A DNA stretch of 27,634 nucleotides from Minisyncoccota bacterium (lineage in GTDB: Bacteria > Patescibacteriota > Minisyncoccia > UBA6257 > JAKLIH01). The notes under the pieces were generated by a model. The model saw only the letters and a program-made list of their open reading frames with translations, was not told where the DNA came from and ran no database searches. The stretch lies in contig JAQUZI010000001.1 of assembly GCA_028691405.1 (NCBI GenBank), positions 6,015 through 33,648 of the forward strand. The letters run 5' to 3'. Each line of letters opens with the position of its first letter. Position 1 is the first letter of the stretch. Made by a program: the position numbers and the translations under genes. Positions 1,401-6,789 of this stretch are shown here, one piece after another.

Positions 1401-3518
1401 ATGTCTCAAGAATATCCTCTTGAAAAAATACGTAATATTGGTATTATTGCTCATATTGATGCTGGTAAAACAACTACATCAGAACGTATTTTGTTTTATA
1501 CTGGTCTTTCTCATAAAATTGGAGAAGTTCATGAAGGCGCAGCTGTTATGGACTGGATGGAACAAGAAAGAGAAAGAGGTATTACTATTACCTCAGCTGC
1601 TACTACTTGTTTTTGAACAACAAGTTATAGAAATAATGATGAAAATTATAAATATAAAATCAATGTTATTGATACTCCCGGACATATTGACTTTACCGCT
1701 GAAGTTCAACGCTCTTTGCGTGTTTTAGACGGTGCTGTTGTTGTTTTTGACGGTGTTGCTGGCGTTGAGCCTCAATCAGAAACTGTTTGAAGACAAGCAG
1801 ATAAATATTTAGTCCCTCGCTTATGTTTTGTCAATAAACTTGATCGTATGGGTGCTGATTTTGACAATGATTTAAATATGATCAAAGAACGTTTAACTCC
1901 TAATGCTGTTGCTTTAACTATTCCAGTTGGCAAAGAGGCTAATTTTGAAGGTGTTATCGATTTGATTAGAATGAAAAAAGTTAATTTTGAAGGTCAACTT
2001 GGTGAGAAATTAGTATTATCTGACATTCCAGAAGATATGAAAGAAATATCTCAAAAGAGAAGAGATGAATTGATTGAAAAAATTGCAACAGAAGACGACT
2101 CCTTAATGGAAAGATATTTAAATGGAGATACCAATTTTACCGAAGAAGAATTAAGAGCATCTTTAAGAAAATCAGTTATTGATTATAAAATTGTTCCTGT
2201 TTTATGTGGTTCTGCATTTAAAAACAAAGGTGTTCAATTAATGCTAGACGCTGTTGTTGACTTTTTACCAAGTCCATTAGATGTTAAACCCGTTGAAGGA
2301 GATAATCTTAAAGGTGAAACCATTGTTCGTAAGGCAGATGAAAAAGAGCCATTTTCTGCTTTAGTATTTAAAATTGCTACCGATCCATATGTTGGTACAT
2401 TATCATTTTTCCGTGTTTATTCTGGTAGATTAACCAAAGGTTCTTATTTATTAAATTCAAATAAAAACAGTCAAGAGAGAATTGGTCGTATTCTCCGTAT
2501 GTTTTCTAGCAAAAGAGAAGACATAGATGATATTGAAGCTGGTGATATTGCTGCTACTGTTGGTTTAAAAAATACCAAAACAGGTGATACATTGTGTGAT
2601 CCAGATCATCCAATTGTTTTAGAAAACATTTCTTTTCCTGATCCAGTTATTTGATTGAAAGTTGAACCTAAGACTAAAAGCGACCAAGATAAAATGGGGG
2701 AAGCTTTGAAAAAATTATCTGATGAAGACCCTACCTTCCAAATTAAAACTGACGAGGAAACCAATGATACTATTATTGGTGGTATGGGTGAATTACATCT
2801 TGATATTTTAATTGATCGTATGAAACGCGAATTTAATGTTGAACTTAACTCTGGTAAGCCACAAGTTGCTTATCGAGAAACAATCAATGGTACAGCTGAA
2901 GCTGAAGGTAAATATATTCGTCAATCTGGTGGTAAAGGCCAATATGGTCATGTTTGATTAAGAGTTGAACCACTTGAAAGAGGCAAAGGCTTTGAGTTTG
3001 TTAGCCAAATTAAAGGTGGTGTTATTCCACAAGAATTTATTTCTTCAGTTGAAAAAGGATCTAAAGAAGCTACTGATAAAGGTATTTTAGCTAATTACCC
3101 AATGTCTGATTTAAGAGTTACTCTTTATGATGGATCTTTCCATGACGTTGACTCATCTGATTTTGCTTTTAAAATTGCCGCTTCTATGGCTTTTCAAGAT
3201 GCAGCTAAAAAAGCTCAACCAGCTATTCTTGAGCCAATTATGAAATTAGAAGTAACTACTCCAGAAAACTTTTTAGGTGATGTTATTGGTGATATTAATT
3301 CCAAACGTGGACGTATTGAAAAAATGGATGAACGCATGGGGTTACGTATTGTTGATTCATTAGTTCCACTTTCAGAGATGTTTGGTTATGCAACCAATTT
3401 AAGATCATTTACTGAAGGTAGAGGTACATTTAGTATGGAATTCCATAGTTACCAAGAGGTTCCAAAAAATATTGCTGAGGATATTATTTCTAAAAGAAAA
3501 CCAACTGCAAAAGAATAA
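1401..3518 (+). CDS. fusA: Elongation factor G (705 aa; 4 TGA = Trp)
   Basis: [48 protein letters not shown]. One continuous frame when TGA at 1614, 1788, 2652 and 2955 is read through. Confidence 0.98.
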
Positions 3519-3525
3519 ACGATAG

Positions 3526-3554
3526 CTCCGCAAGAATTTTTAATTCTTGCGGAG
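3526..3554 (+). terminator. Perfect 12-bp hairpin after fusA; possible terminator or processing stem
   Basis: ctccgcaagaat/attcttgcggag. No clean U-tract immediately after. Confidence 0.55.
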
Positions 3555-3615
3555 TCTCATTGTTTATTTTCAAAAAATTTGGTTTAATTTAAATATATAT
3601 TTAAATATATTTATT

Positions 3616-4386
3616 ATGGCAAACAAAAAAGAAAAAATTCTTGAAAAAGATTCAAAAATTTATAGGATTATTCAAATAGAAGATATGATATATCGATTTT
3701 TAAGTAATCGTGGAAAATTTAATTTAAACTTAAAGTTTAAAGATAAAGAACAAGAAAAAATTTTTTCGGATATATGTAAAAATATATGCTTAAGATTAAA
3801 TGCTTTTGAACCAAGAGAAGAAAAAGATGTTGTTCCTCCTGTTATTGCAAATGCAGCTATAGAAATAGAAAAATTAATCCCTGAAGAAGAGAAAATATCT
3901 GAAAAAAGATTTATTATTACTTTTATTCAATGAGCTAAAAAAGATTTATTTAAAAAAAGATATCTTAAACCTGTTCCTTGAGAGATTATAGATAAAGTTA
4001 ATAAGGCAAGAGAATTTGAAACAGGAACAAAAAATTTAAAAACAACATACGATATACTTGATGAATATCAATCAGATTTAAAAGAAATTATAGAAAGTGG
4101 TAGAAGTATTTCAAGTATTGCTAGGGAATTAGGTATGGACTTACAACAATTTTATTTATATGCCAAAAAAAGAGGACCTGAATGAAATATCTGTCCAGCT
4201 TACAGTAAAATTAAAATTGATAATATCGAAGAAGCTAAAGAATACATCATGAATAATAGTATGAAGGCAATGGCAGAGAGGTTAGGATGTTCTGCATCTT
4301 GCTTGTCTACCTATATGAAAAAAAATTACCCAGAAATAGCAGAGGAAATTAAAAAGCACAGAAGCAAAAGAAAAAAGAAAAACTAA
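3616..4386 (+). CDS. Hypothetical protein with two C-terminal HTH-like motifs, paralog A (256 aa; 3 TGA = Trp)
   Basis: Open frame with TGA read-through. HTH-like GRSISSIARELGMDLQQFYLY and SMKAMAERLGCSASCLSTYMKK. Aligns end to end with the next ORF. Confidence 0.85.
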
Positions 4387-4402
4387 TTTAAATATATGTA
4401 TT

Positions 4403-5182
4403 ATGAAAAATAAAGAACAATGCATTTTAAATCCAGAATCCAAAGTTAACAGAATCCTTAAAATAGAAGACATATTATATAGATTTGTTAATAAGCGAGG
4501 AAGTTTTGATTGAAAAATTGCTTTTAAAAATGAAAATCAAAAAAAATTGTTTTCAAAGATTTGCAACCAAATATATATGCGATTAAATGCTTTTGAACCA
4601 AGCGAAGAAAAGGATACTGTTCCGCCAACAATTGTAGATGCAGCTGTAGAAATAGAAAAGCTAATTTCTAAAAGAGAAAAAATATCTAGTGAATCTTTTA
4701 CCTCAGCTTTTATTAAATGAGCTAAAGTGTTTTTATCAAAAAAAGATGTCACTAAATCAATACCCAAGGATCTTATAGAAAAAATTCGTTATATAAATTC
4801 AATACCTGGTAAACAACGTGAGATAAAAGCAAAAACATATGCAGTTCTTGATGAATATTGAAATTATTTAGAAGAAAGTATAAAAAGCGGAAAGAGTATA
4901 AAAGGTATTGCTAAAGAGCTAGGTATTACCAGAAAAAGGATGGAGCTATATATTAAAAATACTCATCCAGATATTGCAGATTGTTTTAAGTATAATCCTA
5001 TTAAAATAGATGATATTAATAAAGTTGCTAAAAAAATTGCTGATGATGGTATGAATGCAGCTGCAAGGGAAATTGGCTGCTCTCGCTCTGGCTTATATGA
5101 TTTAATGCACAAACAATATCCAGAAATAATGGCAAAAATTAATGATGCAAGAAATAATAAAAGCCAGCAAAACCTTAGCTAA
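4403..5182 (+). CDS. Hypothetical protein with two C-terminal HTH-like motifs, paralog B (259 aa; 3 TGA = Trp)
   Basis: HTH-like GKSIKGIAKELGITRKRMELY and GMNAAAREIGCSRSGLYDLMHK. Shares RLNAFEPxEEKDxVPP and EIEKLI with paralog A. Confidence 0.85.
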
Positions 5183-5183
5183 T

Positions 5184-5212
5184 TTGACAAGTTAAAAATA
5201 AAATGCTATAAT
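5184..5212 (+). promoter_or_regulatory. Perfect-consensus sigma70 promoter with extended -10
   Basis: TTGACA (5184-5189), 17-nt spacer, TG at 5204-5205, TATAAT (5207-5212). Confidence 0.85.
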
Positions 5213-5218
5213 GAACAT

Positions 5219-5462
5219 ATCTAACAACAGCAATGAGTGTGAATAGCAAAGTATTTGTTTATTCAAGCGAGAACATAAATTTGTATTATAAATATGAATT
5301 TTGTTGTCGCAAGAATTACTTGACGACAGTTGTACTTTTTACCTCGTCTACGTAGTGTGAACAAAATAGTTTGTTTTTGAAAGACGAGCAAATACCAAGC
5401 TATTTCCTTGATAAGAGGGGGATTCATTTACCCCTATCAAGGTCACACTCTTAGCTGTTGAC
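5219..5462 (+). ncRNA. Unassigned structured RNA candidate (~240 nt)
   Basis: 5' and 3' ends pair (5225-5231/5454-5460 and 5235-5242/5443-5450), enclosing further helices: 5243-5247/5399-5403, 5251-5257/5389-5395, 5305-5313/5319-5328, 5343-5349/5382-5388, 5406-5413/5435-5442, 5417-5420/5431-5434. Starts just after a consensus promoter. Confidence 0.7.
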
Positions 5463-5469
5463 AAAGGTA

Positions 5470-5498
5470 TTGACTATTTTTATTCTATATGATAATAT
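5470..5498 (+). promoter_or_regulatory. Probable tuf-rpsJ promoter, extended -10
   Basis: TTGACT (5470-5475), 17-nt spacer, TG at 5490-5491, TAATAT (5493-5498). Same ATATGATAATAT core as the rpsL promoter. Confidence 0.7.
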
Positions 5499-5589
5499 AT
5501 GAATGCTTTAAGAAACTTAATAAATTTATTAAGTTTGGTTGAATTGGCTTCAACTAATAATTTTTATAAAAAAATATTAAAAAAAAATT

Positions 5590-6789
5590 ATGGCAGAAAA
5601 AGAAAAATTTGTGCGCTCCAAGCCACATATGAATGTTGGTACAATTGGTCACGTTGATCATGGAAAAACAACATTAACAGCCGCTATCTTAAATACTCTT
5701 TTCTTAAAGGGTACGATTAAAAAATCATCTAATGTTGATGAAATTGATAAAGCTCCAGAAGAAAAAGCTCGTGGTATTACTATTAACGTTCATCACTCAG
5801 AATATGAAACAGACAATCGTCACTATGCTCATATTGACTGTCCAGGTCACGTTGACTACATTAAGAACATGATTACTGGTTCAGCTCAAATGGATGGTGC
5901 TATCTTAGTTGTTTCAGCTGCTGATGGTCCTATGCCTCAAACCAGAGAGCACATTCTTCTTGCTCGTCAAGTTGGTGTTCCTGCATTAGTTGTTTTCTTA
6001 AACAAAACTGATATGGTTTCTGATCCTGAATTAATTGATTTAGTTGAAGCAGAAATCCGTGATTTATTAACAAAATATGAATTCCCAGGCGATGAAATCC
6101 CTATAATTCGTGGATCCGCCTTAAAAGCTACCGAAGCAACATCTTTTGAAGATGAACATGTTCAAGCTGTTATGAAATTATTGGATGCCGTTGATACATA
6201 CTTCCCAACTCCAGAACGTGATACTGACAAACCATTTGTTATGCCAATTGAAGATATCTTTACAATTGAAGGCCGTGGTACCGTTGTTACTGGTAGAATT
6301 GAAAGAGGTATGGTAAAAGTCAATGATGAAGCTGACATTGTTGGTTATGAACCAACAACTAAGACTGTTGTTACTGGCGTTGAAATGTTCAACAAGAGCA
6401 TGGAAGATGCTCAAGCTGGTGATAACGTTGGCTTATTATTACGTGGTATTAAAAAAGAAAATATTCGTCGTGGCCAAGTTATTGCTAAACCAGGATCACT
6501 TACACCACATACTGAATTCGAAGCTGAAGTTTTTGTTTTGTCACAAGATGAAGGTGGTAGACATACTCCATTCTTCTCTGGTTACAAACCACAATTCTTT
6601 ATTCGTACTGCTGATGTTACCGGTGATGTTACTTTAGCTGAAGGCGTTCAAATGGTTATGCCTGGTGATACAGCAACCTTTAAGATCAAATTAATCGCTC
6701 CAGTTGCTTTAGAAGAAAAACAAAGATTTGCTATCCGTGAAGGAGGTAAAACTATTGGCGCTGGTGTTGTAACAAAAATTATTGCCTAA
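5590..6789 (+). CDS. tuf: Elongation factor Tu
   Basis: [37 protein letters not shown]. Confidence 0.99.

Follow-up and report, generated by a model that had tools for sequence, protein, structure and literature searches.

The fusA-tuf interval and its candidate RNA gene

The window, that is, the whole stretch of DNA analysed (27.6 kb), is contig C34 of a fragmentary MAG from an uncultivated tiny-genome bacterium (G000; 509 kb, 54 contigs, 56% complete). Its genes are arranged in the order rpsL, rpsG, fusA (1401-3518), a terminator, two genes for HTH proteins (paralogs 1 and 2), a structured RNA, tuf (5590-6789), and the S10 operon. In the alignment of EF-G (fusA, 1401-3518), in-frame TGA codons coincide with conserved Trp residues, and TGA (UGA) is therefore read as Trp in this host. 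A 2026 paper (PMC13462651) names only four bacterial phyla for UGA-to-Trp recoding, Patescibacteria not being among them. Matching DNA was present in metagenomes from landfill, sludge, groundwater, and digester, and runs X1-X4 contain the organism's DNA. The features of the interval are listed below.

3526-3554, + strand: intrinsic terminator hairpin, a perfect 13-bp stem followed by a T-rich tail, which ends the rpsL-rpsG-fusA unit
3616-4386, + strand: HTH paralog 1, 256 aa (TGA read as Trp), with two C-terminal homeodomain-like HTH units; orphan family
4403-5182, + strand: HTH paralog 2, 259 aa, for which a library of 5.8 billion proteins contained only 3 close homologs
5184-5212, + strand: RNA promoter TTGACA-17-TGcTATAAT, 12/12 (-35 at 5184-5189, TG at 5204-5205, -10 at 5207-5212)
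5219-5462, + strand: structured RNA of about 244 nt, its start predicted from the -10 element and its 3' end from helix P1
5466-5589, + strand: tuf promoter TTGACT-17-TGaTAATAT (5470-5498) and leader, ancestral and outside the RNA

The terminator is the left edge of a segment that varies within the genus. The RNA and its promoter were located between HTH paralog 2 and tuf on the + strand, and the element is present once in G000. The promoter had been described as perfect in the initial annotation, and it outscored all other sites in 3400-5700. Its -35 element begins 1 nt after the stop codon of HTH paralog 2, a spacing that is identical in all four full-length copies compared; in these copies both hexamers and the TG were unchanged, and one spacer base varied.

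The minimum free energy (MFE) of 5219-5462 on the + strand was -79.1 kcal/mol, compared with -46.4 ± 4.1 kcal/mol for shuffled sequences (z = -8.0; 0/200 shuffles were as good), in keeping with the earlier view that such a multi-helix fold is unlikely by chance. The following elements were assigned.

5225-5231/5454-5460, + strand: helix P1, caacagc/gctgttg, in the MFE/consensus fold
5235-5242/5443-5450, + strand: helix P2, gagtgtga/tcacactc; the 3' strand is UCACACUC, and the 5' strand holds the first AGUGUGA (5236-5242)
5243-5247/5399-5403, + strand: helix P3, atagc/gctat, leading to the multiloop; pair 5247-5399 is C-G in the window and U-A in G004 and L015
5251-5257/5389-5395, + strand: helix P4, gtatttg/caaatac, leading to the multiloop
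5261-5316, + strand: long hairpin P5, with an invariant base AUUC/GAAU and a stem that differs in L049 and is still paired there
5317-5334, + strand: short hairpin P6, overlapping an alternative hairpin (5305-5328); no counterpart in L049
5343-5349/5382-5388, + strand: helix P7, ctcgtct/agacgag, part of the conserved core (5343-5388)
5354-5360, + strand: internal loop of the core, between P7 and P8, with the second AGUGUGA copy
5359-5365/5370-5376, + strand: helix P8, in the conserved core (5343-5388)
5383-5392, + strand: invariant GACGAGCAAA, which begins in the 3' strand of P7 and extends 4 nt past the core into the 3' strand of P4
5406-5442, + strand: hairpin P9/P10, ccttgat..gggg/cccc..atcaagg, with a variable loop; kept in L049 (U-A to U.G)

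The fold thus comprises ten helices and is closed by P1 and P2, which correspond to the end pairing of about 16 bp reported earlier. A tight three-way junction is formed by P2, P3, and P9, and the hairpin previously placed at such a junction was recovered there as P9/P10; P3 and P4, which were recovered together with P7 from the same set of proposed helices, open into a multiloop with P5, P6, and P7/P8. Closure was at 5460, which leaves 10 nt to the tuf -35 (5470), i.e. just before the tuf promoter as had been stated. The proposed helix tgtcgcaag/cttgacgaca held up in part: all copies can form it (-7.0 to -8.7 kcal/mol in isolation), but a local fold in which it was enforced was 3.9-8.5 kcal/mol worse than the extended P5. 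No intrinsic terminator was found between 5212 and tuf, so that a discrete 3' end of the RNA is an assumption.

Conservation and pairing in two lineages

Full-length copies of the window type were found in the congener G004, in three JGI contigs of a third species (L015-L017), in L034 (a strain of the window's species), and in a further strain in run X12, and all of these loci were ordered fusA, HTH, HTH, RNA, tuf. The DNA identity between G000 and L015 was 90% for the RNA, 91% for fusA, 77% and 74% for the HTH genes, 97% for the tuf leader, and 95% for tuf. In the alignment of four full-length copies, variable columns amounted to 8/162 at paired and 26/91 at unpaired positions (Fisher p = 3e-7), and for the RNA body alone to 8/162 and 18/74, respectively (p = 3e-5). 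Among the eight paired changes, four made up two compensatory pairs (5247-5399, C-G to U-A; 5420-5431 in P9/P10, G-C to A-U), three were wobble-compatible, and one broke a terminal pair, so that 7/8 kept pairing. Columns 51/96 changed jointly from A.A to G-C, lengthening P5, and the X12 strain carried A-U in place of G.U at 5283. The core includes 44 nt that were invariant among the window-type copies and is also present in L035 and L049, which belong to a second lineage.

The second lineage came from a deep profile search with the HTH proteins, by which two distant full-length homologs, P0006 and P0007, were obtained. P0007, one long HTH protein (338 aa), is encoded directly after fusA, and this form is the one carried by the congener G003. 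Two alleles exist among the contigs of the P0007 species. In one of them (L035, L041, L042, L049, and L050), the HTH stop codon is followed by a perfect TTGACA-17-TGgTATAAT promoter and then by a structured RNA, which is complete in L049, where the sequence continues to tuf. The window-type model aligned L049 positions 935-1130 to model positions 28-227 (23.5 bits, E = 2e-7). Common to both lineages are the P5 hairpin, UUGUAC, UCGUCU...AGACGA with the loop AGUGUGR, UUGAA-GACGAGCAAA, the P9/P10 hairpin, the 3' strand YCACACUC, and the tuf promoter downstream; P1, P2, P6, and P8 have no L049 counterpart. About 110 nt of additional 5' domain are present in L049 (842-950); its end, a long A/U-rich hairpin followed by seven U, resembles an intrinsic terminator placed before the conserved core, from which conditional read-through could follow.

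The other allele (L043-L046 and G003) lacks both the RNA and its promoter, and their place is taken by a weakly structured stretch of 243 nt (z = -3.8) and by a TPR-like orphan ORF of 446 aa; in L043, the region concerned is 4518-6178. The HTH protein does not need the RNA, because this allele has the HTH gene without it. The tuf promoter of the RNA-less allele is still preceded by CCACACTCATTCCAT, which looks like a remnant of the 3' strand of the RNA. For G003, none of the contigs covers the RNA, and the contigs on the tuf side leave the gap unbridged.

A perfect 28-bp hairpin was observed inside the RNA of L035 (1783-1845), arising from an inverted duplication of about 46 nt; it was not in L049 (995-1045), and several assemblies were broken at this point (contig ends of L042, L032, and G003). 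The duplication may be genuine and specific to the strain, or it may be an artefact of assembly. Rfam matches on L035 were discarded, being generic miRNA-hairpin models on this stem, which L049 lacks.

For the covariation analysis, a five-row alignment including L049 was fitted to the structure of the model (MAFFT places the L049 AGTGTGG 2 nt off). Nine pairs were changed on both sides, compared with 3.2 ± 1.3 in shuffles (0/500 reached nine) and with 1-3 pairs in slid controls of the L049-added alignment, and the changes fell in P3, P4, P5 (four pairs), and P10. Covariation among homologs was observed; its statistics are weak, because the set consists of two lineages and effectively about five sequences from one genus, and the fitting of the alignment to the model is a further caveat. 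A search pattern, TCGTCTAN-gap-GTGTG, with the gap fitted to the window RNA (4 nt), matched all carrier loci and nothing in viral contigs.

By comparative analysis, the element behaves like a functional + strand RNA under purifying selection, and it is a real and so far undescribed candidate for a structured RNA gene. The earlier proposal of a new ncRNA class is supported, given that no Rfam family matched, paired positions were spared, compensatory changes occurred within and between the two lineages, and the promoter was conserved.

AGTGTGA occurs at three sites in the window, all within the RNA: 5236 (+), 5354 (+), and 5443 (-), the first of which is part of a 25-nt internal repeat (D9) of the core strand. 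Two folds can be drawn from these sites. In fold A, the 3' strand UCACACU (5443-5449) pairs with the 5' copy as P2. In fold B, it pairs with the loop copy (5354-5360) as helix Px, and a further helix takes part.

5364-5369/5400-5405, + strand: helix H, AAAUAG/CUAUUU, which forms a three-way junction with Px and P9/P10 in fold B

The L049 equivalents, AGUGUGG:CCACACU and GCAACUA/UAGUUGC, lie in the L049 MFE structure, and one Px pair changes in a compensatory manner from A-U to G-C in L049. Among the window-type copies, fold A was the better one by 9-11 kcal/mol; in L049, fold B had an advantage of 10.5 kcal/mol. In the energy model, the lineages thus prefer different folds by about 10 kcal/mol, and a functional fold common to both is putative. 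Since L049 is without P2, Px could coexist there with P3/P4/P7 as a pseudoknot. The covariation of AGUGUGR:YCACACU between the lineages suggests a second fold or a pseudoknot; it may reflect a switch, a tertiary contact, or lineage drift, the comparison being based on one diverged sequence.

The HTH genes and the variable slot

Every copy of the RNA directly follows an HTH gene of one orphan family. The two HTH paralogs of the window are 46% identical, and each consists of a helical N-terminal domain of about 120 aa without a match and two homeodomain-like HTH units. Very few members of the family were present in protein libraries of 5.8 and 1.8 billion sequences, and the HTH profile matched 3/401 genomes including the window's own, all of one genus. 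No PADLOC or NCBIfam match was obtained for the HTH proteins; Pfam, PHROGs, and Atlas gave only sub-threshold HTH matches, namely to HTH_38/HTH_28 and other transposase-, resolvase-, and terminase-type HTH models. Foldseek against the PDB found no fold match for the AlphaFold model, which is poor in the N-terminal half (pLDDT 62). Weak hits had pointed to a sigma factor, and this lead was dropped after profile searches gave CAP-repeat, IS21-transposase HTH, and homeodomain models instead.

Each HTH paralog is preceded by nearly the same 17 nt (3599-3615, ATTTAAATATATTTATT; 4386-4402, ATTTAAATATATGTATT), which differ by one base and are part of an AT-rich palindrome (repeats D1, I2, and I3). 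This near-identity indicates that the duplication took an upstream signal along, which may be a shared operator or a translation signal.

The RNA model matched 2/151 genomes of the order including the window's own and none of G001, G002, and G003; in G005 the RNA was not found by DNA similarity, and the fusA-tuf interval of G001 gave no match with filters off. The RNA was accordingly found in one genus only, in which variable cargo occupies the slot between fusA and tuf. The interval of G001 spans 6.9 kb (L054, G001:C42:18900-26100) and contains a Fic/Doc-family gene, an HTH_3-Panacea (SocA-like) antitoxin gene, a 131-aa orphan, an ArfB-like RF-1-domain gene, and a gene for a 976-aa GLUG/InlB-repeat surface protein; in G005, different genes again lie upstream of tuf. 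As a side observation, the G001 cargo with the Fic/Doc-family gene adjoins tuf, the gene for EF-Tu, and Doc toxins target EF-Tu. The HTH-RNA block was also considered as a simple insertion, and this was rejected: the ORF before tuf in G001 is not fusA, which lies 6.9 kb off with cargo between. Neither terminal repeats nor target duplications were found flanking the segment.

The tuf promoter and leader (ggtattgact...) also precede tuf in G001, G003, and L043, which are without the RNA, and the similarity between the window and such relatives ends exactly at the 3' end of the RNA. The position next to tuf, which had been regarded as informative, is therefore not so: the RNA belongs to the variable cargo between fusA and tuf and stands apart from the conserved tuf leader. 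Two conserved hairpins were observed in this leader (5511-5562), also in G001 and G003 (97% between species), and its only Rfam match was a chance-level one to psRNA14 (E = 0.45).

Explanations for the RNA and its possible role

No Rfam family reached its gathering score anywhere in the window, and a permissive scan of 4900-5700 gave chance-level matches only; ARAGORN found neither tRNA nor tmRNA in the window. The initial annotation had likewise seen no signature of RNase P RNA, tmRNA, or SRP RNA, in agreement with these searches. RNase P RNA was rejected as a candidate, there being no match in the window and a type-A-like RNA elsewhere in the genome (G000:C10:39-476; 65.6 bits with the type A model, E = 2e-20, gathering cut-off 100; 34 bits with type B). 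Because its score is well below the Rfam gathering cut-off, standard annotation would miss the RNase P RNA of this genus. Similarly, no tmRNA was found in the window, and one above the Rfam cut-off was found at G000:C45:13585-13938. For SRP RNA, no match at E<=10 was obtained on the RNA stretch, and RF00169 and RF01854 were negative in G000, G004, and G001. The SRP54 M domain (PF02978) was not found in G000, G004, and G001 (98% complete) either, and it was matched in 14/14 control genomes. The SRP-negative state is equal in the carriers (G000 and G004) and the non-carrier G001, and the SRP of the genus may be lost or extremely diverged.

Among known RNAs, the raiA motif, HEARO, OLE, ROOL, and GOLLD are likewise ornate, conserved multi-helix non-coding folds whose biochemical role is unassigned and which were recognised through conservation of structure rather than through a phenotype. 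In this comparison, which draws partly on general knowledge, the window RNA differs in having no Rfam match, in being smaller than most of them and far narrower in distribution, and in being tied to an HTH gene.

The RNA is probably a separately transcribed, structured ncRNA of an undescribed family, carried as accessory cargo between fusA and tuf; it may act in trans with the HTH protein(s) and switch its fold. A constitutive sigma-70-type promoter right after the orphan HTH stop codon would drive its transcription, and the stable RNA would act in trans with the neighbouring HTH protein(s), which would control the RNA promoter or bind the RNA. The functional site would be the sequence-invariant core, consisting of AGUGUGR and UUGAA-GACGAGCAAA. 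Pairing of the 3' strand YCACACU with either AGUGUGA copy would give the closed fold or the three-way-junction/pseudoknot fold, and alternation between the two would expose or hide the core.

An unlikely alternative is a cis-acting 5' leader, in which 5184 would be a second promoter of tuf and the S10 operon and the structure would stabilise or regulate the read-through mRNA. Like the leaders of ribosomal-protein and translation-factor genes and like riboswitches, the RNA shares its strand with tuf and the S10 operon and immediately precedes them; tuf is the next gene in every locus seen that far downstream, and the lack of an intrinsic terminator from 5212 onwards is in line with read-through. 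Unlike in such systems, however, tuf has a conserved promoter of its own downstream of the RNA, relatives in which this promoter and the tuf leader are kept do not have the RNA, and no expression platform was recognised, there being no terminator-like site after the RNA and an independent promoter at 5470 before tuf. The end of similarity at the 3' end of the RNA and the lack of the RNA in most congeners also speak against a leader, and no helix sequesters the ribosome-binding site of tuf, which is more than 120 nt away behind another promoter.

About equally improbable is that the RNA is the antitoxin, toxin, or effector component of a new toxin-antitoxin-like or defence-like module with the HTH proteins. 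It is favoured by the variable slot, which holds the Fic/Doc, HTH_3-Panacea antitoxin, and ArfB-like genes in G001, by strains of one species having either the RNA or the TPR-like ORF, by the predicted strong constitutive promoter, and by the HTH gene abutting that promoter, as is often seen with autoregulating antitoxins. ToxIN, retron msr-msd, and the OMEGA and bridge RNAs of TnpB, IscB, and IS110 also have an RNA beside a protein partner, variable or mobile cargo, an own promoter, and paired ends. In contrast to these systems, the RNA has no endoribonuclease, reverse transcriptase, RuvC/DEDD nuclease, or recombinase in its vicinity: the neighbours of the RNA are only fusA, two HTH-only proteins, and tuf, so that a reverse transcriptase and a TnpB/IscB/IS110-type nuclease or recombinase are lacking and the candidate partners are HTH-only. 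Element ends and ToxI-like tandem repeats are lacking as well, the RNA having one internal repeat only (72% identical, 118 nt apart). The absence of a PADLOC or NCBIfam match, of any other effector domain, of a conserved small toxin ORF, and of a match in viral contigs further counts against such a module.

That the RNA is a diverged 6S-like RNA binding the RNA polymerase holoenzyme, as the initial annotation had also offered, is very unlikely. It resembles 6S RNA (RF00013) in being a stand-alone bacterial RNA that is of similar size (about 200 nt), is closed by pairing of its 5' and 3' ends, and has a strong promoter, and the role is formally vacant, since no 6S RNA was detectable at E<=1 in five genomes of the genus (the 6S model matched 5/14 control genomes). 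However, 6S RNA is a rod with a central bubble, whereas the window RNA has a branched body of ten helices without a long rod or central bubble; RF00013 gave nothing at E<=10 in 4900-5700, and the RNA is accessory cargo of part of one genus, absent, unlike a housekeeping RNA, from most congeners, and the congeners without it have no detectable 6S RNA either.

It is just as improbable that the element works as DNA, its inverted repeats forming an array at which the HTH proteins would bind or take part in recombination or replication. A strong fold was obtained for the - strand as well (-73.9 kcal/mol, z = -7.5), and AGTGTGA occurs twice directly and once inverted beside genes of DNA-binding type. 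Against this, four G.U pairs and the changes C-G to U.G, A-U to G.U, and U-A to U.G keep pairing in the + strand RNA only, the perfect promoter is aimed at the + strand, nested helices over more than 200 nt are unlike operators, and flanking terminal repeats or target duplications are missing. A small protein or uORF is hardly conceivable. A frame of 40 codons in the window and of 54 in G004 starts from the ATG at 5233 (TGA read as Trp), but this ATG is not preceded by a Shine-Dalgarno sequence, a 1-nt deletion in G004 shifts the frame and leaves the two C-terminal halves without similarity, neither strand of L015 has an ORF of >=25 aa, and no ORF is common to all four copies.

As for the RNA in general, its conservation over 245 nt at the level of fusA argues for a real role, because tiny genomes leave little room for non-functional DNA. 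To our knowledge, conserved branched ncRNAs of such size are rare, and almost nothing is known of the ncRNAs of candidate-phyla-radiation bacteria. Large structured ncRNAs found earlier have in many cases proved to be ribozymes, riboswitches, or RNP scaffolds. Through the strict linkage of the RNA with the orphan HTH genes, in a slot occupied by toxin-antitoxin genes elsewhere, a concrete protein-RNA pair is at hand. As a tentative and rather doubtful extension, the RNA and the orphan multi-HTH protein(s) may constitute a new RNA-protein accessory module, toxin-antitoxin-like, defence-like, or selfish, with a two-fold switch through AGUGUGR:YCACACU. If this is true, the module would occupy a cargo hotspot beside tuf in ultra-small, recoded (UGA = Trp) Patescibacteria.
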